Virus record (IMG/VR): IMGVR_UViG_3300045988_069437
Coordinates: 1 to 13,399 of that record
Origin: a virus
Length of the DNA: 13,399 nucleotides
Reading direction: 5' to 3' (one strand)
Of this stretch, positions 1 to 13,399 are shown piece by piece. The translations under genes and the position numbers were made by a program. How positions within the stretch are numbered: the first letter of the stretch is position 1; each line of letters begins with the position of its first letter. The notes below the pieces were generated by a model. That model searched no databases, had not been told where the DNA came from, and was given only the letters and a program-made list of their open reading frames with translations.

Positions 1-141
1 GCGATAGATTAACCACCACAGGCGGACATTTGTCTTTCCCCCACGGACACATTTGTGCGCACAACACGGACACAATTTGTGCGTGGCAGGTGGACAGGGT
101 GCGCTTTAACGTGCTAAAGCGGAGCCATATTATTTTCTTAT
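1..141. repeat. Left inverted terminal repeat (ITR) of a linear protein-primed genome
   Basis: Manual alignment of nt 1-141 against the reverse complement of nt 13259-13399. Positions 1-59 are identical. Mismatches fall at left positions 60, 75, 81, 91, 102, 125 and 126, giving 134/141 identity. Similarity decays with indels beyond ~142. The window begins exactly at the repeat. Confidence 0.97.
19..104. repeat. Four phased GGACA-core iterons inside the left ITR (mirrored at 13296-13381)
   Basis: GGACA occurs at 24-28, 45-49, 68-72 and 92-96, with spacings of 21, 23 and 24 nt. The copies read caggcGGACAtTTGTc, cacGGACAcaTTTGTgcg, cacGGACAcaaTTTGTgcg and caggtGGACAgggtgcg. The first three are GGACA-N(0/2/3)-TTTGT with partial dyad symmetry (ACA..TGT). 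Confidence 0.8.
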
Positions 142-173
142 GGTGGATATTAGGAAATATAATACCAATGGGC

Positions 174-205
174 ATAAAGATAGACTGCGGATTGCTCCGC
201 AGCCT
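174..205 (-). terminator. Rho-independent terminator at the end of the late operon
   Basis: On the minus strand, 8 nt after the tailspike stop: AGGCUGCGGA-GCAA-UCCGCAGUCU. This is a 10-bp stem with one G-U pair and a GNRA tetraloop, followed by AUCUUUAU. Confidence 0.6.
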
Positions 206-213
206 ATTCTCTG

Positions 214-1986
214 TTAGCTGATTGTGCCGAATTCTTTCCATGTGCCGGGATTTCCTGTTGCTATGCATACCCAGCCGATAGGACTACCACTTGCAGGACT
301 GCTGTTATAAACAACTTCGCTCAAAGTGTGATTTCCTTCCGTTGGAGCAGCGTTACCGGCTTCAAAGGCATACAAGGAAACGCCTTTGAGTAGCGACATT
401 TTAGACCTATCAATCACATTTGCCGCAATCAGCACGCTACCCGAGATATTTCCTTGTCCACTGTAAATCAGTGCATCATTGTATCTTACGGCCGTATTTC
501 CAATTACGCAAAGTCCTTTAATGTAGCTTAAATTCATAGCAATTTGCGCTGTTGCACCTTCGTTGTTATTAAGATAGCAATTTCTAACTGACAACCCCTC
601 GGTATGTGCACTGTCGCTACCCTCGCAGTGAATGCACTCGCCGTTCATCCACTCGAAATAACAGGTATCAACGTCAATGTTGTAGCGCACACTATTCACG
701 GGGTTAATGGTAATACCGCGCTGACCTTCAAAGTTACATTTTACAAACTTAATGGTTGCGCCGCCGTACAGAATGACAACATTGGAGTTTGTCTTTGTGT
801 TATCCAAAGGCAAAGCAAAATCACACGAATCAAACAGCCAGCTATTAGCCTGTTCAAGCAGTCTGACATTGGAAGGATCTGCGGCATCATTTTGTACGAA
901 CACGCAATTTCTGACTGTAAAAGTCCATGCGTGATCTGCAATGATAGAACTTGTGAAACGTCTGAAAATAATATCAGACAATACCCATTTCTGTGCATAT
1001 TTGAAATTCATGCACACGCCCTCGGCGTTTACGTTAAAGAGTGTCAGGTTTCTGATATATGATTCTTGAATTGTTGTATTGTCCGGCATTACAAAATCGA
1101 ACAGCGTGTTAGTTTCTGATCTAAGAATAGTTGCGTAGATATTCTCACCGAACATTTGAAGTCTGCGTGCTTTGGTTGTATCTAAATGCAAACTCGCCGT
1201 GATTCTGTATTCGCCGTTCGGCACATAGATAGGCGTTTTATTTGTCTGAAATTTTTCAATCGCCGCCTGAAAAGCCGCTGTATCATCATGAACCGCATCG
1301 CCAACAGCGCCAAAATCTCGCACATTGATTACATGAATAGTGCCGCTACCTATTTTAGCCTCAAGAGCCGCATCTGCTTCTTCTCTGGCCGTTGTTTCTG
1401 TGGCAATCTTTGTATCCAGCGCCTTGTCCCCGTTCTCTCTGGCCGTGATCTCGTCCTGCAACTCGCTGGAAATGGTATTCACTTCATTTGCGATACTATC
1501 GCCCAGCGCAACAAATAGATCATGTACGTTGGTTTTCTTACAGTTGGATCCATCAACATACATGTCACCGGCTACGATATTTTTTGTAATAAGCAGCAGA
1601 TCATTTTCCAACCACACCCAGTCACCGGCCTTGTGGTCAATGCTGGCCGTGGTGCTGTGCTGCTCGTCATACGGAGTGATCGCAGATCTCACGCTATCCC
1701 ATAGCGCGGAGAAGTTTCCGATTTTCGTCCAGTATTCTTCACGATCCAGAGACACGCCAGCCGGAACAGGCTGCACGCTCAAGTATGCATTGCCGCTGCT
1801 ATCCAAAACAACGGTGTTCGTTTCATACTGGCTTGTGATATCCCAAATGATAGGATTGGCATACTTTACAGAGTTGATCGCCACAAAGTTCGTGATCTCC
1901 GTCTCAAGCTCTTTCAGCTCATGAAGGATCCAGTCGAGATTTAGTTCATGGAAATTCGCATAGGGAAAGTTTTCAAATAAACCCAT
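214..1986 (-). CDS. Tailspike / pre-neck appendage-like receptor-binding protein with a pectate-lyase-superfamily beta-helix (putative polysaccharide depolymerase)
   Basis: 590-aa ORF. The ATG at 1986 is preceded by AAGGAGG. The N-terminal FPYANFHELNLDWIL motif is common in Firmicute phage fibre and appendage N-termini. A coiled Ala/Glu segment follows (DEITARENGDKALDTKIATETTAREEADAALEAKIG). Next comes VINVRDFGAVGDAVHDDTAAFQAAI...PIYVPNGEY, typical of the start of a right-handed beta-helix (Pectate_lyase_3-like). It is the last structural gene, matching the position of phi29 gp12. Confidence 0.75.
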   Translation of the reverse strand: MGLFENFPYANFHELNLDWILHELKELETEITNFVAINSVKYANPIIWDITSQYETNTVVLDSSGNAYLSVQPVPAGVSLDREEYWTKIGNFSALWDSVRSAITPYDEQHSTTASIDHKAGDWVWLENDLLLITKNIVAGDMYVDGSNCKKTNVHDLFVALGDSIANEVNTISSELQDEITARENGDKALDTKIATETTAREEADAALEAKIGSGTIHVINVRDFGAVGDAVHDDTAAFQAAIEKFQTNKTPIYVPNGEYRITASLHLDTTKARRLQMFGENIYATILRSETNTLFDFVMPDNTTIQESYIRNLTLFNVNAEGVCMNFKYAQKWVLSDIIFRRFTSSIIADHAWTFTVRNCVFVQNDAADPSNVRLLEQANSWLFDSCDFALPLDNTKTNSNVVILYGGATIKFVKCNFEGQRGITINPVNSVRYNIDVDTCYFEWMNGECIHCEGSDSAHTEGLSVRNCYLNNNEGATAQIAMNLSYIKGLCVIGNTAVRYNDALIYSGQGNISGSVLIAANVIDRSKMSLLKGVSLYAFEAGNAAPTEGNHTLSEVVYNSSPASGSPIGWVCIATGNPGTWKEFGTIS

Positions 1987-3591: not shown

Positions 3592-4128
3592 TCATCTCCT
3601 TTCTTTGAGTTTGAATAGCAGCCAGATAGGGATTTGCTTCACGGGTGGATGTCCTGCAAGATATTCATACCAGTATTCAGCCTGTCGGCTTCTCGCCGGC
3701 TGTGGCTTCACCGTTGGCCGCTCATAATTATAAAGGAATGCCTGCGCGAGATATGCAGGCGGCTTGTCAGATTGCGAAAACTCACGGAACGTCATAGGGT
3801 AAAGGCTGGTGCTAATCCATTGCAGATGATTTTCAAGCTCGTAAATGATCCGCGCCATTTCCTTCTGGCCGTTGTCTTGCCATCCATCCCCGGCCCAGTT
3901 TGAATATTTCGTGTACGGTGTCCACTGCACAAGGCCGTAGCCGCCTGCGAACGGATCCAGATTTTCCCAGATTCCCGGATTCAGTGTGCTTTCCGTCTGC
4001 ATGTTGCCGAACATGGCCGCGATAGCGTTTACCGTCCAGCCCTGATCCGTGAAGAATGCATACATAATATCAGCGTTGTTCTGCATTTCCGTCATAGACA
4101 GATAGCGGTTTCCAGTGATCCACGGCAT
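3592..4128 (-). CDS. Tail-associated peptidoglycan hydrolase, lysozyme-like domain only (N-terminal domain of phi29 gp13; Phage_lysozyme2-like)
   Basis: 178 aa. NRYLSMTEMQNNADIMYAFFTDQGWTVNAIAAMFGNMQTESTLNPGIWENLD...GYGLVQWT...YERP...QAEYWY parallels the phi29 gp13 N-terminus ([52 protein letters not shown]...GFGLVQWT, from memory). This includes the catalytic-Glu context MQ(T/S)ES. There is no M23 peptidase domain. Confidence 0.85.
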   Translation of the reverse strand: MPWITGNRYLSMTEMQNNADIMYAFFTDQGWTVNAIAAMFGNMQTESTLNPGIWENLDPFAGGYGLVQWTPYTKYSNWAGDGWQDNGQKEMARIIYELENHLQWISTSLYPMTFREFSQSDKPPAYLAQAFLYNYERPTVKPQPARSRQAEYWYEYLAGHPPVKQIPIWLLFKLKERR

Positions 4129-4139
4129 AGAAGCTCACC

Positions 4140-5546
4140 TCATTCATAGAAATAGCCGGATGCAAGATAGCTTTTGACCATTCTGTTTTCTTCGCTCGTT
4201 CCGGATAGTGAGAGATCCGGATCTGCAATCACCTGATAACCGGGCAGCGTGGACAGCTTCACCTTTTTACAATAGGGCCGTCCGCGATCCTCGTTATCAT
4301 CAGAGACCACCGGAAGAAATTTAGCGTACAGCGTGGGCGCGCTGGTGAAGTTGGCAATAGTGCCATTGCTTCCGCTGGTGGCGAACTCTGGCATAGATGC
4401 GTTAACCATATCGCCGATCATGTTCGCGCCGGCTGTGATCGCTCCAACAGGATTAAACCAGTTTTTAGCAACGTTCGCCGCTCCATTCACGGCGGTCAAA
4501 GCCATATTTAAATAGTTCTGGCCGATCTGCGCGATCTGAACCGGCACACCGTACTGGCCGCGCCGGACAGCAATCGCATAGTCTTTCAGTCCGGCTTTGA
4601 GATACATATCAGCAATGCCCGTTGTGTAGTCCACTGTGTAAGTCATGCTCAGCGCTTCTTCATTGATAATCGCTGTGGTGTCAATCGGAATGACCCCCCA
4701 CACGCGGCTGTCAAACGTGTACTGTGAGAATGGCGCGGCGTTGAGATACTTCCCTCGTGTAGCGGATTGCGGATGCTTCGGAATTGTGATGATAGCTGCA
4801 GACGGAAGCACACCAGCTGTTTTTAGCTTCGCTGCGTTTACCGGCACATTCCACCAGCCGAATGGGATAGAAGTTACCGCTGTACCAGCCGGGGCATTAT
4901 CCGGATACCACATCACGCTGGTGATATACTGCATGGGATTAAACAGGACTTTGAGAAGATCCGCGGAGATCTCTATATTTTCACCCGTCCACGAAACATC
5001 ACCCAACAAATAGGCCATGAATGACCGGAACTGCACCTCGCTGAAAACGTAGTAAGCAACAGCGCCGATAGCGTCAGCGCTATTATTTACAATTCCGACA
5101 ACATAGGAACCGCCAGAGATCGCCGTTACCGTGGGCCATGTAGACGCTGCTTCAGCGCTCAATGTAACATCGCCCTTTGCCGGGTAAAGTCCGTCAATCA
5201 CGCTGCCGTCAGACGCAAAGGCGCTGCGCGTCACGTATTGAAAACTCTCCCCGATGCTGTTCTTCCAGCTGGCCAGAACGTCAACCTCCAAGTGCGCCGT
5301 CCACAAGTGACCATTGCCAACCGTCCAATCCCTGATAAAATAATAGCGGTTTCCCAGATCGGAAATATACGCATAATTATAATAAGAGGGATTTCCCTTT
5401 AGGCCAAAGTCAAAAGTAATTTCCGGCCTTAACAGGCTTGTAGGCATCTTCAAGACGGCGTTGTGCGTTCTCTGCGTCACGGTGCTGTCCGGTCTTTTTG
5501 TGCTGTTCTCACGCTTCTTGAACTCGTACAGCGTTACACTAAGCAT
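4140..5546 (-). CDS. Tail knob / distal tail tube protein (phi29 gp9-like N-terminal domain)
   Basis: 468 aa with a strong RBS (AAAGGAGGTCAATT-ATG). NYAYISDLGNRYYFIRDWTVGNGHLWTAHLEVDVLASWKNSIGESFQYVTRS resembles phi29 gp9 ([58 protein letters not shown], from memory). It follows the MCP, as gp9 does in phi29. Confidence 0.72.
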   Translation of the reverse strand: MLSVTLYEFKKRENSTKRPDSTVTQRTHNAVLKMPTSLLRPEITFDFGLKGNPSYYNYAYISDLGNRYYFIRDWTVGNGHLWTAHLEVDVLASWKNSIGESFQYVTRSAFASDGSVIDGLYPAKGDVTLSAEAASTWPTVTAISGGSYVVGIVNNSADAIGAVAYYVFSEVQFRSFMAYLLGDVSWTGENIEISADLLKVLFNPMQYITSVMWYPDNAPAGTAVTSIPFGWWNVPVNAAKLKTAGVLPSAAIITIPKHPQSATRGKYLNAAPFSQYTFDSRVWGVIPIDTTAIINEEALSMTYTVDYTTGIADMYLKAGLKDYAIAVRRGQYGVPVQIAQIGQNYLNMALTAVNGAANVAKNWFNPVGAITAGANMIGDMVNASMPEFATSGSNGTIANFTSAPTLYAKFLPVVSDDNEDRGRPYCKKVKLSTLPGYQVIADPDLSLSGTSEENRMVKSYLASGYFYE

Positions 5547-6823: not shown

Positions 6824-7174
6824 TTACTTTTCTCCTTTCGGTGCCGGGTTGATGATCTCGGCAAGAATTTCTTCGGGTGTCTGAACCTTGGGCTGGTTCA
6901 CGTTCATAATGTTGCTGCCCTGCACAAGCCCGGTCAACTTCTGCAACTCTGCAAGAACGGGATCAACCGGGGCAGGGGCAGGCTGAGGAACGGGGGCAGG
7001 AGCAGGAGCAGGAGCAGGAGCAGGCTGAGGAACGGGGGCAGGTGCAGGCTGCGGAACGGGGGCAGGTGCAGGCTGCGGAACAGGGGCAGGATTGTTAATC
7101 ATGGAAAGACCTGCAATCTGCTGAGCGGTAAACCCAGCTTTCGCAAGGGTCAGGATTTCGTCAGGCTTAAACAT
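6824..7174 (-). CDS. Putative scaffolding protein with a central Pro/Ala-rich repeat linker
   Basis: 116 aa, immediately upstream of the MCP, the position of phi29 gp7. The N-terminus MFKPDEILTLAKAGF loosely resembles gp7 MPLKPEEHEDILNKL. Two predicted helical ends flank (PAPAPVPQ)n. The functional call rests on synteny. Confidence 0.55.
   Translation of the reverse strand: MFKPDEILTLAKAGFTAQQIAGLSMINNPAPVPQPAPAPVPQPAPAPVPQPAPAPAPAPAPVPQPAPAPVDPVLAELQKLTGLVQGSNIMNVNQPKVQTPEEILAEIINPAPKGEK
6968..7091. repeat. Tandem DNA repeat inside the scaffold-like gene
   Basis: Four 24-nt units, gcaggctg(a/c)ggaac(g/a)ggggcagg(a/t), at 6978-7001, 7020-7043, 7044-7067 and 7068-7091. An 18-nt (gcagga)x3 insert lies at 7002-7019. 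The repeats encode PAPAPVPQ and PAPAPA. Confidence 0.9.
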
Positions 7175-7831
7175 TTATTTTCTTCCTTTCTTTAAATAAA
7201 TTAGAATGACGTGTGCAACGTTGCGGCTGGAACACACCTGCCGGCGCTCGTGGTCAAGGTAGACCTGAGAACTGCCGCCACAGTCAAGCATAACAGCATC
7301 TTGCCAACCGTAGCTTTGAAGTAGCTGTGCAAGCTGTTCCGGCGTTTTCCTTGCTCGTGATCCGTCCTTAGAAGCATAAAGACACAAACGCTTCTGACCG
7401 TTAACATACTTAGTGCCGATAGCAGTTCTTCCACGCCTGCCGCCCTGTGCAACGTTGTAGATTGGCTTCTTGATTGCTTTCCCATCCATCAGGATATGAC
7501 TGCAAGCAATGTAATTTTCCCATGCTTGATTGGGGACTAAATCAAAGTGAAAACTATTTGCGTTGTAGTTGTCCCAGAGATAGCCACGATACAGATATTT
7601 CCCATGGTACAGCGTTACACCGTTCCGGCGTAGAGGGCAAACCGGGTTGCCATTCATCATATTATATAAGGTTCCGTTGATTGCGTAGTCTGCGCCGGTT
7701 TCGCTGATAATGGCAGATAGAGATTTCCGCTTTCGTGTTCGTGGGTTTGGTTTGTTCAGGTAAATTTCAATTCTTTCAATGTCATCCAATGGAATTGAAA
7801 CTGCTACCTCATTCTCTTTCTTCGCTGACAT
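7175..7831 (-). CDS. Phosphodiester glycosidase (NAGPA / DUF2233) family protein in the endolysin position
   Basis: The ATG at 7831 has GAAGGAG 10 nt upstream. The ORF-track start at 7840 is a GTG only 1 nt from that RBS. The product is 218 aa. Family-like motifs are GADYAINGT, GRTAIGT and AVMLDCGGSSQ (the family consensus is roughly AINGGFF / RTAIG / LDGGGSS). It has no signal peptide or TM segment and overlaps the holin 3' end by 23 nt. Confidence 0.65.
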   Translation of the reverse strand: MSAKKENEVAVSIPLDDIERIEIYLNKPNPRTRKRKSLSAIISETGADYAINGTLYNMMNGNPVCPLRRNGVTLYHGKYLYRGYLWDNYNANSFHFDLVPNQAWENYIACSHILMDGKAIKKPIYNVAQGGRRGRTAIGTKYVNGQKRLCLYASKDGSRARKTPEQLAQLLQSYGWQDAVMLDCGGSSQVYLDHERRQVCSSRNVAHVILIYLKKGRK

Positions 7832-8033
7832 GGCCGACACGCTCCTTCAACAGCGACACGACCTCTTTGAGATCTCGCAGTGCTTCGGTGTTCTCCTTGA
7901 CTACTTCCGTCCAGCGCTCACTTTCTGCCGCGTGGCTTTCGCGCTCCTTGTTCTGCATCCAGAACATGACACCCACGCAAACGATCGGAAATCCCAGATT
8001 GCTTACAAGCTGACTAATAGTAGAAACGTCCAT
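7809..8033 (-). CDS. Holin, BhlA/UviB-like (single N-terminal TM plus a charged coiled C-terminus)
   Basis: MDVSTISQLVSNLGFPIVCVGVMFWMQNKERES..., followed by a charged helical tail, resembles BhlA-family holins (M.D......L...GP......F......KERES). There are two in-frame ATGs (8039 and 8033, MYM). The RBS AGAAGG is 1 nt from the first ATG and 7 nt from the second, so 8033 is preferred. Confidence 0.68.
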   Translation of the reverse strand: MDVSTISQLVSNLGFPIVCVGVMFWMQNKERESHAAESERWTEVVKENTEALRDLKEVVSLLKERVGHVSEERE

Positions 8034-8053
8034 ATACATTCCTTCTGCCGGAT

Positions 8054-8059
8054 ATTATA
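8054..8059 (-). promoter_or_regulatory. Candidate -10 box (TATAAT) of a late promoter lacking a recognisable -35
   Basis: A minus-strand TATAAT lies 14 nt upstream of the holin ATG at 8039. The hexamers 16-18 nt upstream (GCATGA, CGCATG, ACGCAT) are not -35-like. Confidence 0.25.
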
Positions 8060-8064
8060 ATAAT

Positions 8065-8135
8065 GAGCAAGGGCATCATGCGTTAGTCAGACGCGTGCAC
8101 CAGCTTCCGGCTGTGACTTTGTGCAACCCTTGCTC
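8065..8135 (-). other. Structured intergenic element (long-range inverted repeat enclosing nested hairpins) between the ATPase and holin genes
   Basis: GAGCAAGGG (8065-8073) and CCCTTGCTC (8127-8135) form a perfect 9-bp inverted repeat around 53 nt. The enclosed RNA can form CAGC-CGGAA-GCUG stacked on UGCAC/GUGCA. Alternative pairings are AGUCA/UGACU and GCGU/ACGC. An ACGCGT palindrome sits in the middle. Confidence 0.4.
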
Positions 8136-8150
8136 TGATATAAGAGTAGC

Positions 8151-9188
8151 TTATCTCAAATACTTTGTCAAGTAATGTTCCGCTAAGTATTCTTCAAAAG
8201 TTACCTTATTTTTCATGTACGCATCCCACAGCCAGCCATACATACGCTTGAAGCGCTGTATGTCTGCTTCACTGTCAGTGTAGCACGGCGGACTGCCGGA
8301 CTTGTGCAAGGAAACGTAATAGGTGCCGTCTGACTTGTGCCGATACACGCAGATTTTAGAGATTGCGCAAATAGGAATAAATTCCTTAATAGGTCTGCTC
8401 CGAATGTTTCCGAAATCGTTAAATGAAAATTTGTTATCCAGTGCCATTTCAGAAAAGCGTGTGCCCTCCGTAGCCTTATAAAGCACGGTGTTCCGCTTTT
8501 CGTCTGAAATGGGAGAGTGTTGAAGCATATAAAGACATATACCTCGCTTGTCATCTTGATAGACTTCTTTGCCCTTGGCTAACATCTCATTTGCTCGTTT
8601 GACCAGATTGAAACCTACAAACACCGGGTTTGCTACATCGTTAGCGTTGGCGAGACAGAGAAGCTGCACGGGCTTCCGTCCTTGCAGCTCTCTGTTACGG
8701 TTCACTGTCTCGTAGCAGTTCATAAGCGCTTCAAACTCGTTTTTAATTGGGCGCTCGTGGCGTTCCGGTATAAATTCGTCAAAAATCATCAAGTCAACGT
8801 CTGACGCATCAAACCCTCGAATATTCGAAAACGTTGATAAAGCGGCTGAATATCCCAATGGCTTACCCTGCTGTATCTGCTTGCCGTCCTCGTCTACCTT
8901 ATAAAAATAAAAGGCGCTGTTGTACTTCGTGACCGGCGAGGACGTTATTAAGAGGTTTTGATCCTCACATATTCGCTTGAATGGGGAAAACTCCGGTTTT
9001 GTAATAATGTCGGCCTGTGCCTGTGTTCGCCGGATCAACAAGAAAGTTCTTGGGACTTGGATAGATTCTAACAGACTGCCGTAAGTTTTGCCTGTGGCTC
9101 GCCCTCCAACCGCAAAGTTGAAGGGCAAGCCACGCTCAAGCAATCCGTGAACATCTAAATAGCCGCTATCAAGATATATGCGGCTCAT
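8151..9188 (-). CDS. DNA encapsidation (packaging) ATPase, phi29 gp16-like
   Basis: 345 aa (gp16 is ~332 aa). The Walker A motif is GGRATGKT near the N-terminus, and the Walker B motif is VDLMIFDEF. No nuclease-type terminase domain is apparent, which is consistent with protein-primed unit-length genome packaging. Confidence 0.85.
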   Translation of the reverse strand: MSRIYLDSGYLDVHGLLERGLPFNFAVGGRATGKTYGSLLESIQVPRTFLLIRRTQAQADIITKPEFSPFKRICEDQNLLITSSPVTKYNSAFYFYKVDEDGKQIQQGKPLGYSAALSTFSNIRGFDASDVDLMIFDEFIPERHERPIKNEFEALMNCYETVNRNRELQGRKPVQLLCLANANDVANPVFVGFNLVKRANEMLAKGKEVYQDDKRGICLYMLQHSPISDEKRNTVLYKATEGTRFSEMALDNKFSFNDFGNIRSRPIKEFIPICAISKICVYRHKSDGTYYVSLHKSGSPPCYTDSEADIQRFKRMYGWLWDAYMKNKVTFEEYLAEHYLTKYLR

Positions 9189-9554: not shown

Positions 9555-11579
9555 TTATTCGTATTCGTAACGAATTTCGGTTAGCAGCCGCTTATAATCA
9601 GCGGCGAGGCCCAATGTGCTGTGACGGAGACGGAGAGAGACATTAGATGTTATTCTAAGGGCGCGGCCCTCGGCCTGATACTCGCGGTACTCACCAACCG
9701 GCATATCATTATAGACTGCTTCCAGTCCGCCGGCTTCTTCAAAGGTGAAGCCCTCGTGAAATGCCGTGATACCTCCGTGTGCTTCAAGTTCTTCACCCCC
9801 TTTCTTTTTTGAAACTCCGGCAATGGTGCAGATCAGTTTACTGTCAGGTGTTTCGCGGTAAACGTATTTCTTCGCGCCCATCGTGCGAAACTCACACATA
9901 TCATGTTCTTGCTCGTAAACACCCATGTAGTGAGTTTCGCCGCTGGGATCGGTGGCAAACGCTCCACTTTTCCGACTGTCTTTCACTCGTGCATTGTTGA
10001 ATTTCTTCAAGTCGATCTCGCCTAAATACTTCACGCTGTCTGTGTCGCAGTAAACAAACTGCGGCGCGTTGGGATCATCTGGATCTCCATGGGCAAGCTG
10101 TATGCCTTCTTCCAGCCGGTAGCGTGCCCATGCCGTCACCCACACACCCCAATGATAAGCAAGAAATGCTTTCCTATTATGCGCAAGCAGCAGCCCTGCT
10201 TCATCCTCGTTCTGTTCCTCGAACATGTTGTTAATGAATAGGATGGACTGCTTTACCGGATCTTGTGCGCACATTCCATATAGGGAATTCAGCTTGTTCT
10301 TAGATTTCAGGTAAAGCAGCTCTTGCCCTTCTACGTTTTTCAGCTCTGTTTTATAGTGGTAGTATTGGCAGATCGTTTTTATGAGCGGCTTCGGCAAATA
10401 GCCATATCGCGCACACGCCACGTCAAAGAATTTGATATCAGTCCAGTCATACTCAGAAATCAAAATCTTGAGATCAATGTCTGTTATGGTGGTTTCTAAG
10501 TAGTCAGCGGAAATGATTCTGCCATTGTCCACCAGCGCGTTCTCTGTGTGTCGGCATTTCGATAGGCTCAAATATGGGCATCCCCAATCAATACGCCGCA
10601 AATGCGGCCCGGTCAAAGCTACACGCATGATGCAGGCTTTCTCGCGCACACCCAGCATCTTAATGACTTCTTCATAAGGCAGATCGCCCAGCCGGTAAAA
10701 TTCACTGATTGGAAATTTACAGTTGCACATAACATCAGGGTAGCTGCTGGATCTGTCGGCGCTGTGGACGTTGTGCAGCGTGTAATTGGTATAGTATCGG
10801 TTCGCGTGGGTGTTACCGCCCCGGAACGCTTCACGGAGCATCTTGTATATCTCATAGTCTGGCAGCTGTGACTTTACAAAGCTGTATGACACATCTGACA
10901 TTGCTTTCTTAGCATCACGGCGAACGTAGCCGGTTGACGTCAGAGGGAAAGTATAGATTGTGTCACCGTCATGCTCCATTTCTATCTGGATGGCTTCCAC
11001 AAGTCCCTGCACGTCATGCACGCAATATGCAAGCTCTGATTCGCTCAGTTCTGTCCATGGGTAACGGATCTTGTCATAGTCGAATGTGCCGGATAGCTTC
11101 GCGTGCTGAACACCCATTTTCTTGGTGTATGTATCCAGATTCATGTTGCTGTGGAGATAGGAACAGCGGAACTCGAAACAATCCCACATATCACACTTTA
11201 GGACTTTGCGAGATTTTACAGCAAATACATCTTCTTGCCGGAAGAAGTATATACCCTTCAAGAATTGAAATTCATATGATAGGTTATGCACGAATACAGG
11301 TAGAAACACGTCACCCAGAACGCTTCTCAGGTGATTCTGGAAATCTAAGAATTCTTCCCACGTCCGGCCTACAACAGTATAATTAGTGCCAAATTGCCAT
11401 TGCCAGATATACATGAAGGATTGTTCAATGTCTGGAAGTCTGGTTGTCTCAATGTCAAAGGCTGTTATCAGATCCTTGTATTTCCGTCTTTTCTTCGTGC
11501 GCTGGTTGCCTGGTTTACGCTTCACCAGAGGAATATCTGCAAGCCATTCATAAGGGAAATCCGCTGCACTGATAATCAT
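9555..11579 (-). CDS. Protein-primed family-B DNA polymerase (phi29 gp2-like)
   Basis: 674 aa. Exonuclease motifs: ExoI FDIETT, ExoII HNLSYEFQF, ExoIII YCVHDVQGL. Polymerase motifs: motif A DRSSSYP, motif B KSKNKLNSLYG, GVWVTAWARY (phi29 has GVFITAWARY), motif C YCDTDS, KxY GAKKYVY, and thumb IAGVSKK. Its ATG overlaps the upstream stop (ATGA at 11576-11579). Confidence 0.96.
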   Translation of the reverse strand: MIISAADFPYEWLADIPLVKRKPGNQRTKKRRKYKDLITAFDIETTRLPDIEQSFMYIWQWQFGTNYTVVGRTWEEFLDFQNHLRSVLGDVFLPVFVHNLSYEFQFLKGIYFFRQEDVFAVKSRKVLKCDMWDCFEFRCSYLHSNMNLDTYTKKMGVQHAKLSGTFDYDKIRYPWTELSESELAYCVHDVQGLVEAIQIEMEHDGDTIYTFPLTSTGYVRRDAKKAMSDVSYSFVKSQLPDYEIYKMLREAFRGGNTHANRYYTNYTLHNVHSADRSSSYPDVMCNCKFPISEFYRLGDLPYEEVIKMLGVREKACIMRVALTGPHLRRIDWGCPYLSLSKCRHTENALVDNGRIISADYLETTITDIDLKILISEYDWTDIKFFDVACARYGYLPKPLIKTICQYYHYKTELKNVEGQELLYLKSKNKLNSLYGMCAQDPVKQSILFINNMFEEQNEDEAGLLLAHNRKAFLAYHWGVWVTAWARYRLEEGIQLAHGDPDDPNAPQFVYCDTDSVKYLGEIDLKKFNNARVKDSRKSGAFATDPSGETHYMGVYEQEHDMCEFRTMGAKKYVYRETPDSKLICTIAGVSKKKGGEELEAHGGITAFHEGFTFEEAGGLEAVYNDMPVGEYREYQAEGRALRITSNVSLRLRHSTLGLAADYKRLLTEIRYEYE

Positions 11580-12235
11580 AAGAATTCTTTCAGATCCTTG
11601 TATAGATCATCGGAGCTTTTCTCAATGACGTTCCGCTCTTTCTTATGTGGCTTGTTCTTTTCATCCTGCCATGCCTCGAAATCGCGTAGTATCTGCGCTG
11701 TTTTGTCTTTGCGTTCGGCAGCTTTCTCAAAGGCTTCGCTATTCCTGATTGCCTCGTAAAAATCCAGAGCAACTGTGGATCCATAGCCGCGCATCATACC
11801 ATCTTTCCACTGCCGGAAAAACTCGCCCAGATCTATATAGTTAGATTCATTTACAAAGGTATAACCGTGCTTGTGGAAAGTCTTGATTGCTTTGTCTCTG
11901 GCTCTCTTAATACCTCTCAGCGTGCCGGTTCGCGCGGTCATCATCTTCGCGAGGTCTGCAAGCAGCAACTTCATTTCGTAGAGCTTCAACTCGGAGGATG
12001 GCTTATAACGATCCTTATTATAATAGTATGTCTTGCTGGCTCTGCCGATTTCACTTTCTTCAATACGCTTTAAGCGCTTCTGTGCGATTACGCGCAGGCG
12101 CTGGTATTCGTGCTTGATGTTTTCGGGTGTCCATACATCTGCGTGCCGGATCGCGTCCAGCGTGTAAAATTCCGGGGTTTCTTTTGGGTCAATCACTTCC
12201 CCGGTTTCCGGGTCTGCTATTCGGTAAAACTTCAT
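11576..12235 (-). CDS. Candidate terminal protein (replication primer)
   Basis: 219 aa, Lys/Arg/Glu-rich. It lies immediately upstream of the polymerase and is translationally coupled to it, as gp3-gp2 are in phi29. The RBS AAGGAG is 10 nt upstream of the ATG at 12235. The genome has ITRs and a protein-primed polymerase, so a terminal protein must exist, and this is the only candidate of suitable size. I recognise no convincing sequence motif. Confidence 0.5.
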   Translation of the reverse strand: MKFYRIADPETGEVIDPKETPEFYTLDAIRHADVWTPENIKHEYQRLRVIAQKRLKRIEESEIGRASKTYYYNKDRYKPSSELKLYEMKLLLADLAKMMTARTGTLRGIKRARDKAIKTFHKHGYTFVNESNYIDLGEFFRQWKDGMMRGYGSTVALDFYEAIRNSEAFEKAAERKDKTAQILRDFEAWQDEKNKPHKKERNVIEKSSDDLYKDLKEFL

Positions 12236-13196: not shown

Positions 13197-13225
13197 ATCT
13201 TATCAGAAAAAATACTAAAAGGCAA
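13197..13225 (-). promoter_or_regulatory. Candidate sigma-A-type early promoter
   Basis: The minus strand reads TTGCCT, then 17 nt ending in TGA, then TAAGAT. The -35 is at 13220-13225 and the -10, with a TGn extension, is at 13197-13202. It lies in an AT-rich tract 34 nt inside the right ITR and ~60 nt upstream of the first ATG. Confidence 0.4.
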
Positions 13226-13258
13226 CAACTTTTATCATTAAATATTCTAATACCAACA

Positions 13259-13399
13259 ATAAGAAAATAATATACCTCCGCTTTAGCACGTTAAAGCACA
13301 CCCTGTCCGCCTGCCACGTACAAAATGTGTCCGTGTTGTACGCACAAATGTGTCCGTGGGGGAAAGACAAATGTCCGCCTGTGGTGGTTAATCTATCGC
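13259..13399. repeat. Right inverted terminal repeat (ITR)
   Basis: Reverse complement of 13259-13399 matches nt 1-141 (see left ITR). The window ends exactly at the repeat. Confidence 0.97.

Follow-up and report, generated by a model that had tools for sequence, protein, structure and literature searches.

The window analysed here is the whole 13,399-nt stretch of DNA that makes up the IMG/VR virus record IMGVR_UViG_3300045988_069437, and the object of this work is the gene lying at positions 7175-7831 of its minus strand, which encodes a 218-amino-acid (aa) protein of the NAGPA/DUF2233 family and overlaps the gene of a holin-like membrane protein. The data reported below strongly suggest that the NAGPA domain is a genuine wall-directed lysis enzyme module, that is, an enzyme of the lysis cassette acting on the cell wall. 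The more detailed account, according to which this gene would encode a soluble, holin-dependent lysis enzyme directed against wall glycopolymers in a phi29-like podophage of gut Oscillospiraceae, stands, taken as a whole, about even.

The NAGPA open reading frame (ORF) runs from an ATG at 7831-7829 to a TAA at 7177-7175, and direct reading of the sequence reveals a Shine-Dalgarno motif (GAAGGAG, 7848-7842) placed 10 nt 5' of this ATG and embedded in the coding sequence of the upstream gene. The program-made list of ORFs begins three codons upstream, at a GTG (221 aa); the homologues are called at 218 aa and share the same MSAKKENE start. The upstream gene (7809-8039, minus strand) codes for a 76-aa protein with one transmembrane segment at residues 8-26 (hydropathy 1.7) and a charged C-terminus, which matches phrog_4898, named "holin" (E=3e-6), and its 3' end overlaps the start of the NAGPA gene by 23 nt (7809-7831). 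No signal peptide or transmembrane segment was found in the NAGPA protein, whose maximal 19-aa hydropathy is 0.53 and whose N-terminus is polar. The pairwise ratio of nonsynonymous to synonymous substitution rates (dN/dS) between this gene and its relatives is 0.05-0.10. To judge from these substitution patterns, the NAGPA gene is under strong purifying selection and is a real, selected gene of the lysis cassette. Two other explanations were discarded: a chance ORF is ruled out by the dN/dS values together with the existence of 31 syntenic relatives, and a virion protein by the absence of an attachment domain and by the position in the lysis cassette.

Proteins similar to the NAGPA protein form over 100 clusters (at 90% identity); most are 211-220 aa long and are encoded on contigs of 13-14 kb. 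The gene order ATPase, protein with one transmembrane segment, NAGPA, one or two small proteins, capsid protein is shared by 31 IMG/VR podophage contigs, whose NAGPA proteins are 50-97% identical to that of the window, and a small ORF with one transmembrane segment occupies the holin position at all 31 related loci. The holin-position gene, the NAGPA gene and a gene for a gp13-like lysozyme are found together in each of the 24 near-complete genomes. All the 26 genome hits fall within the Oscillospiraceae (genera Oscillibacter, Dysosmobacter, Flavonifractor, Pseudoflavonifractor and Intestinimonas) and are mostly prophage-like; therefore, the host clade is probably Oscillospiraceae.

The 218-aa protein is a member of the NAGPA/DUF2233 family on the grounds of its profile, its fold and most of its catalytic residues. 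It matches PF09992 over profile positions 2-169 of 169 (E=1.9e-12, 48.2 bits; the gathering threshold is 25 bits), and no other domain was found in it by a Pfam scan. Its PHROG match, phrog_18955 (E 2e-42), is an unannotated family, and an NCBIfam search matched no model. The AlphaFold2 model, built on 32 homologues, is a single compact domain (pLDDT 95.8, pTM 0.92). When this predicted model was compared with the PDB using Foldseek, the 15 significant matches (E<=1e-3, weaker hits being noise) were exclusively NAGPA/DUF2233 folds, with probability 1.0 and TM-scores of 0.56-0.69 normalised on the query; the entries matched were 6pku, 6pky, 6u11, 6pki, 6pkg, 3ohg, 5h3k and 6ozd, and no endolysin catalytic fold was among them. 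The model has the alpha/beta fold in three subdomains that characterises the catalytic core of the uncovering enzyme. A single-sequence phmmer search of the PDB returned nothing but a chance match to the ALE-1 targeting domain (E=0.37), and profile searches were needed. The best viral structure matches in BFVD are multi-domain proteins named peptidase, CHAP-domain protein, N-acetylmuramidase, PlyB-like endolysin and autolysin. No recognised class of peptidoglycan hydrolase (muramidase, transglycosylase, glucosaminidase, amidase or endopeptidase) was matched in Pfam, NCBIfam, PHROG or Foldseek, so that the protein answers to the definition of an endolysin by its context and not by its biochemistry.

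These data bear out most of what a preliminary description of this DNA, made from its letters, had claimed. The three motifs that it quoted are present (GADYAINGT at residues 46-54, GRTAIGT at 134-140 and MLDCGGSSQ at 181-189), and the family membership deduced from them agrees with the full-length PF09992 match above the gathering score and with the fold. The view of a single 218-aa domain lacking a cell-wall-binding domain and a signal is shared by Pfam, AlphaFold2 and hydropathy, and the coupling to a holin gene by the 23-nt overlap and the phrog_4898 match. The searches that it recommended, in Pfam and by structural comparison, yielded NAGPA matches and no better match to a known endolysin catalytic family, and the survey of holin-adjacent NAGPA genes that it also proposed led to the 31 syntenic podophage loci and, in addition, to larger phages and prophages.

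The founding member of the family has been dissected in detail. In human NAGPA, the uncovering enzyme, activity depends on the loop 286-DGGGS-290 and on R316: mutating D286, G288, S290 or R316 abolishes it, as the D286A substitution does. The phosphate, the proposed leaving group and general base, is held by this loop and by R316, while the N-acetyl group of the substrate is read by E226/T227 (PMC13474241). The chemistry of the family is the alpha-retaining cleavage of sugar-1-phosphate (PMC13474241). In the window protein, residues D183-C184-G185-G186-S187 (codons 7271-7285, minus strand) correspond to human D286-S290 in the HMMER and hhalign comparisons with 6pku and human NAGPA, and R135-T136 of the GRTAIG strand (codons 7424-7429, minus strand) to R240-T241 of the human ARTAIG strand (HMMER against 6pku). 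The R203 residue (codon 7223-7225, minus strand) corresponds to the phosphate-binding R316 in the hhalign alignment with the human catalytic core; this last equivalence rests on hhalign and not on a three-dimensional superposition, because the HMMER local alignments to 6pku end before the C-terminal Arg. The human sequence entered into hhalign was checked for its 515-aa length and at 23 residue positions named in PMC13474241.

These residues were compared across 89 distinct domains of phages and prophages, which share 27-97% identity with the window protein. D183, G185, S187, R133, R135, W86, Y125 and G53 are invariant in all 89, and R203 is kept in 88 of them. Position 184 (7280-7282) is Gly in each of the 53 fused forms and Cys in 29 of the 36 stand-alone forms; two further cysteines, C65 (7636-7638) and C110 (7501-7503), are highly conserved in the stand-alone and in most of the fused forms. 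The conservation of both the loop and the phosphate-binding Arg implies that the machinery for a sugar-1-phosphate substrate has been retained, and we consider it likely, on the strength of these residues, that the window protein is catalytically active with NAGPA-type chemistry.

The same domain is repeatedly found in multi-domain endolysins. The "endolysin" adjoining the holin in Flavonifractor phage Chenonceau is a NAGPA+Amidase_3 protein, and Flavonifractor phages Castelnaud and Cormatin harbor a holin-adjacent NAGPA-like+SH3_3+Amidase_2 protein. In larger phage and prophage contigs NAGPA is N-terminal to Amidase_3 (with or without SPOR), to Peptidase_M15_3, to Amidase_2 (with PG_binding_1 or SH3_3 in some cases) or to CHAP (with or without PG_binding_1), and genes for small membrane proteins flank these loci; one temperate phage exhibits a split fusion, with NAGPA (198 aa), an r1t-type holin and an M15 peptidase. 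An exhaustive profile search retrieved 789 clusters at 50% identity (389 at E<=1e-10), in which NAGPA is nearly always the N-terminus of a longer protein. Among 121 representatives of the family, 113 match PF09992, and the partner domains are PG_binding_1 (46), Amidase_3 (18), CHAP (17), SH3_3 (16), Amidase_2 (13), SPOR (9) and M15 (5), with GH25, Phage_lysozyme and LysM as single cases. Proteins of 267-282 aa consist of NAGPA plus PG_binding_1 or SH3_3 alone, which, as their domain composition indicates, is the textbook layout of a catalytic and a binding domain with NAGPA as the sole enzyme. Thus, the coexistence of NAGPA with SPOR, SH3_3 and PG_binding_1, and its occurrence in proteins made of one enzymatically active and one cell-wall-binding domain, argue for a catalytic domain and not for a mere binder.

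The loci of these two-domain proteins lie mostly on uninformative contigs of 1-3 kb, L119 and L120 being the only informative ones. There, a pig-gut phage cassette (L119, 5320-10091; L120, 2404-7175) consists of a membrane protein, NAGPA+PG_binding_1, a 79-aa protein and CHAP+PG_binding_1. A reverse transcriptase (RVT_1) is encoded just upstream of this cassette, beside a DUF4376 tail-fibre-like gene, and probably belongs to a diversity-generating retroelement. At nearly every phage locus examined, NAGPA is accompanied by a canonical peptidoglycan hydrolase, whether in cis or in trans, and this companionship favours an accessory, "uncovering" role for the NAGPA domain.

The stand-alone and the fused forms also differ in charge. 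Stand-alone domains have a median isoelectric point (pI) of 9.67 and a net charge of about +15 (9.67 and +14.9, respectively, in the window protein), whereas the NAGPA domain in fusions has a median pI of 7.7 and a net charge of about +1. Endolysin catalytic domains without a binding module often compensate for its absence by a positive charge, through which they adhere to the anionic wall. The cationic charge of the stand-alone forms would thus explain the absence of a cell-wall-binding domain, and it argues for the wall as the site of action. The suggestion of the preliminary description that the protein might be an uncharacterised type of lysis effector can be divided. Its role in lysis is strongly reinforced by the synteny in 31 relatives, by the fusions in endolysins, by the NAGPA+PG_binding_1 and NAGPA+SH3_3 proteins and by the cationic charge. 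The domain had not gone unnoticed, being already part of annotated endolysins: database names such as "Phosphodiester glycosidase [Caudoviricetes sp.]" already place it in phage lysins, and a 2026 survey of gut-phage endolysins lists CHAP-NAGPA-SH3_3 as bicatalytic, with NAGPA as a catalytic module (PMC13284279). What is new here is the stand-alone, cationic, holin-coupled NAGPA protein as the only enzyme in the lysis cassette of a whole podophage clade, together with the census of partner domains, the charge dichotomy and the Gly-to-Cys variant of the loop.

A relevant question concerns the other wall hydrolases of the genome. The window carries inverted terminal repeats (ITRs) of 163 nt each, 92% identical, at positions 1-163 and 13237-13399, as revealed by a repeat search; their presence at both ends implies that the window is a complete genome and that the inventory of its genes is complete. 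The gene at 3592-4128 (minus strand), located between the tail and connector genes, codes for a 178-aa gp13-like tail lysozyme (Pfam Phage_lysozyme2, 2e-32) that aligns over residues 6-159 with the N-terminal domain of phi29 gp13 (3csq/3csr, E=1e-42). This homologue comprises the lysozyme half only, without the M23 half of phi29 gp13, and it is present in 24/24 near-complete relatives. All remaining ORFs of the window were scanned and none matched a lysin, and no lysin domains were found in the extra ORFs of the 24 near-complete relatives. In full agreement with the preliminary description, this genome encodes a single canonical peptidoglycan hydrolase, the gp13-like lysozyme, which is a candidate peptidoglycan-cleaving partner of the NAGPA protein.

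We found no clean case of a close relative in which a canonical endolysin replaces NAGPA in its slot, the genomes inspected being MT835998.1 and AD70P3. The faecal podophage MT835998.1 (L113) was considered as such a relative and rejected, since it is differently arranged and has only an M23 protein in the gp13 slot (M23-only, 181 aa, 4817-5359). The occurrence of lysozyme-only and M23-only proteins in this slot suggests that the two halves of gp13 are distributed between lineages. In Amedibacillus phage AD70P3 (L114, OP172639.1), the "hypothetical protein" at 7998-8225 is a homologue of the window holin (29% identity, E=1e-11), and another "hypothetical protein" at 10970-11638 is a CHAP-domain protein, likely an endolysin, which is not adjacent to the holin homologue.

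Starting from the family and fold, the holin coupling, the conservation, the recurrent use in endolysins and the charge pattern, we infer a substrate, a timing and a division of labour with the lysozyme as follows. The NAGPA protein would be made late, its translation being coupled to that of the holin, and, in the absence of a signal peptide, would accumulate in the cytoplasm until the holin permeabilises the membrane and gives it access to the wall, where its net charge of about +15 may hold it on the anionic surface without a binding domain. The active site (Asp183 in the D-C-G-G-S loop, Arg203 and Arg133/Arg135) would then hydrolyse the glycosidic C1-O bond of a sugar-1-phosphate diester. 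The likeliest target would be the linkage unit or the backbone of a phosphodiester-linked wall glycopolymer, either teichoic-acid-like or a secondary wall polysaccharide attached to N-acetylmuramic acid 6-phosphate (MurNAc-6-P). The linkage unit made by LCP proteins (polymer-...-GlcNAc-alpha-1-P-6-MurNAc, GlcNAc being N-acetylglucosamine) is the closest bacterial stereochemical analogue of GlcNAc-alpha-1-P-6-Man, and it is by this analogy that it might be proposed as substrate of the phage enzyme. Cleavage of the polymer might "uncover" or destabilise the peptidoglycan, and a canonical hydrolase would cut the latter afterwards. This second enzyme is, in most relatives, an amidase, CHAP or M15 domain that is fused to NAGPA or encoded next to it; in this minimal genome the part would fall to the gp13-like lysozyme and/or host autolysins. 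We hold a wall-polymer linkage as substrate, with a peptidoglycan hydrolase as partner, tentatively, at or slightly below an even chance. The preliminary description had suggested that the protein might act together with host autolysins; the accessory role that this implies fits the data, the likeliest partner being the gp13-like lysozyme rather than autolysins alone.

Several observations weigh against this account. The loop of the window protein is DCGGS, with a Cys for the first Gly and the other four residues unchanged, and not the DGGGS that is reported to be strictly invariant in the family (PMC13474241). Human E226/T227 align with the non-conserved K121/K122 in hhalign (the confidence of the alignment being low in this loop), so that the specificity for the GlcNAc sugar cannot be transferred to the phage protein. 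Moreover, stripping the polymer would by itself leave the peptidoglycan closed, and hence the model needs the gp13-like lysozyme, whose counterpart in phi29 is a tail protein, or the host autolysins. To our knowledge, the wall polymers of Oscillospiraceae are uncharacterised, which makes the proposed substrate hypothetical. An association with amidases would be just as typical of endolysins in which both catalytic domains cleave peptidoglycan. Finally, literature searches combining NAGPA, DUF2233 or PF09992 with phage, endolysin or teichoic acid retrieved no enzymology for a phage or bacterial member of the family.

Some of these points lend themselves to a different explanation, namely that the NAGPA fold has been re-tooled to cut peptidoglycan itself, in the glycan strand or at some other bond. 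The protein would then be a self-sufficient endolysin and represent a new peptidoglycan-hydrolase family, with the gp13-like lysozyme serving for entry only. This would account for its being the sole holin-coupled enzyme, conserved as such in 31 relatives, and for the resemblance of the NAGPA+PG_binding_1 and NAGPA+SH3_3 proteins to ordinary peptidoglycan-targeted endolysins; the loss of the GlcNAc-specific E226/T227 would reflect a change of substrate, and bicatalytic endolysins usually do pair two peptidoglycan-cleaving domains. However, the chemistry of the family is alpha-retaining and phosphate-dependent (PMC13474241), whereas the glycosidic bonds of peptidoglycan are beta-1,4 and phosphate-free. 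The phosphate-binding Arg and the glycine-rich phosphate loop have been kept in 88-89 of the 89 domains, and a canonical peptidoglycan hydrolase also occurs in nearly every cassette examined. On balance, we regard this explanation as rather unlikely.

Rather than being primarily a lysis enzyme, the protein might be set free at lysis to strip the receptor polymer, so that the new virions are not trapped on debris or on cells already infected. Wall glycopolymers, on which such an enzyme is predicted to act, are typical podophage receptors, the phage carries a pectate-lyase-like appendage as well, and a 2023 study of prophages in Curtobacterium counts NAGPA-like proteins among the depolymerases that remove receptor modifications (PMC9862828). 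The tight coupling to the holin, the repeated fusion to amidases, peptidases and CHAP in lysis cassettes, and the lack of a virion-attachment domain make this role improbable. Even less credit can be given to the idea that the protein attacks precursors in the cytoplasm, hydrolysing UDP-GlcNAc, UDP-MurNAc or undecaprenyl-PP-linked sugars, each of them an alpha-sugar-1-phosphate, and starving wall synthesis as small lytic phages do with their "protein antibiotics". UDP-GlcNAc is indeed split into UDP and GlcNAc by the mammalian enzyme (PMC12024695), which also turns over GlcNAc-1-P (PMC13474241); a protein without a signal peptide accumulates beside the precursor pools, and no endolysin dedicated to peptidoglycan cleavage is encoded in this very small genome. 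Yet the translationally coupled holin suggests export to the wall, the homologues fused to PG_binding_1, SH3_3, SPOR and wall hydrolases point to action in the wall, and the cationic charge of the stand-alone forms suits wall binding. A catalytically dead wall binder or regulator (an anti-holin partner, a chaperone or a degenerate module retained by chance), to which the N-terminal position of NAGPA in fusions, where some lysins have their binding modules, and the deviation of DCGGS from DGGGS in the window clade might point, is highly improbable in view of the catalytic Asp, loop Gly/Ser and Arg that are invariant across 27-97% identity, of the dN/dS of 0.05-0.10, and of the co-occurrence with dedicated binding domains and the NAGPA+PG_binding_1 proteins in which NAGPA is the sole enzymatic domain.

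The proposed wall-polymer lysis enzyme can be compared with several known systems. It shares with the uncovering enzyme the fold (Foldseek probability 1.0, TM-score 0.63-0.67), the Pfam family and the alignment of the catalytic Asp, the glycine-rich loop, the ARTAIG strand and the phosphate-binding Arg. It differs from it in sequence (12-15% identity), in being about 60 residues shorter, in lacking the propeptide, the epidermal growth factor (EGF) stalk, the membrane anchor and the disulfide set, in the DCGGS loop and in the non-conserved E226/T227; it is, moreover, predicted to be cytoplasmic and holin-released, it is strongly cationic, and its substrate cannot be a mannose-6-P glycan. The bacterial DUF2233 structures (BACOVA_00430, 3OHG; Slr0280, 5H3K; BPSS2145, 6OZD) have the same fold and belong to the same family, 3OHG reaching a TM-score of 0.69 against the model with the best root-mean-square deviation, 5.1 A; those proteins are cellular, exported and endowed with extra domains, whereas the phage protein is a signal-less minimal domain in a lysis cassette. 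With the endolysins of Chenonceau and of Castelnaud/Cormatin the window protein shares a homologous domain (39% and 26% identity, respectively), the conserved residues, the host family and the adjacency to a holin. Those endolysins combine the domain, within one polypeptide, with a canonical hydrolase and in many cases a binding domain as well. The window protein is bare; it has a charge of about +15 instead of about +1 and a Cys in place of the first Gly of the loop, and its genome is devoid of any amidase or peptidase.

B. subtilis GlpQ and PhoD can be proposed as functional analogues, in that they dismantle phosphodiester-linked wall polymers (bioRxiv 10.1101/2024.03.27.587046). Their folds are unrelated to that of NAGPA (a TIM barrel and a calcineurin-like fold), and they cleave the P-O bonds of polyol-phosphate backbones, whereas NAGPA-type enzymes cleave the C1-O bond of sugar-1-phosphate. 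As for phi29, the likeness extends to the protein-primed PolB, the gp16 ATPase, the connector, the major capsid protein (MCP), the ITRs, the orthologue of the gp13 N-domain and the succession of a holin and a soluble enzyme. In phi29 the holin is gp14 and the endolysin gp15, and the enzyme following the holin is of the lysozyme type and not NAGPA-fold. In the window the lysis genes are flanked by the packaging ATPase gene on one side and by the scaffold/capsid genes on the other, whereas genes 14 (holin) and 15 (endolysin) of phi29 come after the tail genes and before gene 16, coding for the ATPase.

The remaining genes are those expected of the whole linear genome of a phi29-like (Guelinviridae-like) podophage, whose hallmarks are present (DNA_pol_B_2, Phi29 SSB, Podovirus_Gp16, Phage_connector and Phi29_MCP). 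Every gene of the window is on the minus strand. Their order of transcription is as follows: small early genes, including that of an RHH (ribbon-helix-helix) protein; a putative terminal protein of 219 aa; the protein-primed family-B DNA polymerase; the phi29-type single-stranded DNA-binding protein (SSB); the gp16 packaging ATPase; the holin-like membrane protein; the NAGPA protein (7175-7831 including the stop codon); a Pro/Ala-repeat protein of 116 aa (6824-7174); the phi29-type MCP; a tail protein of 468 aa; the gp13-like tail lysozyme; the gp10 connector; a lower-collar/adaptor protein; and a pectate-lyase-like appendage of 590 aa. The ORFs at the genome ends (30-221, plus strand, and 13215-13370, minus strand) encode near-identical peptides because both sit in the ITRs. 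Judged by its MCP, the phage has its nearest isolated relatives in Amedibacillus phages assigned to the Guelinviridae, and unannotated contigs from human faeces are nearer still.

One of the few intergenic spaces of the genome, a non-coding gap of 111 nt (8040-8150), separates the ATPase and holin genes; a consensus scan of the minus strand between 6700 and 8300 found no promoter-like site. A 24-nt tandem repeat (6965-7090) lies within the Pro/Ala-rich gene, whose product varies from about 101 to 141 aa across relatives. In most relatives (for instance in contig L007, 6451-6777) an extra gene of about 105 aa (MENMKATEIIQQGLAHGESYE...), without a Pfam match and not present in the window, lies between the NAGPA and the Pro/Ala-rich genes. 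In relatives (L007, 12584-13450; L037, 12554-13447; and others) the appendage gene is also followed by a further, separate ORF of about 290 aa (MSTQT..LDLRE..IFNPLSTN...), of which no counterpart was detected by blastp among the window proteins. The identity of the appendage to that of the window varies from 49 to 92% among relatives. The additional ORF and the variable appendage look as if receptor-binding modules had been exchanged at this end of the genome.

Five peptidoglycan-cleaving activities are distinguished among endolysins. The NAGPA module is a module of different predicted chemistry that is widely used by phages of Oscillospiraceae, a major and poorly studied family of the gut. 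It is conceivable, although we consider it doubtful, that the NAGPA module represents a sixth chemical class of endolysin, a sugar-1-phosphate glycosidase severing the bond made by LCP proteins or the phosphodiesters of the backbone, and that this podophage clade lyses its hosts without a dedicated peptidoglycan-cleaving endolysin, via the tail lysozyme or unleashed host autolysins. The fact that the protein is a single, well-folding domain of 218 aa makes the question directly testable. If the module cuts peptidoglycan instead, it would provide a new hydrolase family for enzybiotic engineering. The release of wall polymers currently relies on hydrofluoric acid (HF) or acid. If wall-polymer linkages are indeed cleaved, the NAGPA protein would be the first known hydrolase for the linkage between wall polymer and peptidoglycan and the first enzymatic tool to release teichoic acids and secondary wall polysaccharides intact; its action would represent an accessory "uncovering" step in the lysis of Gram-positive cells and would explain how these phages gain access to a peptidoglycan shielded by secondary polymers.

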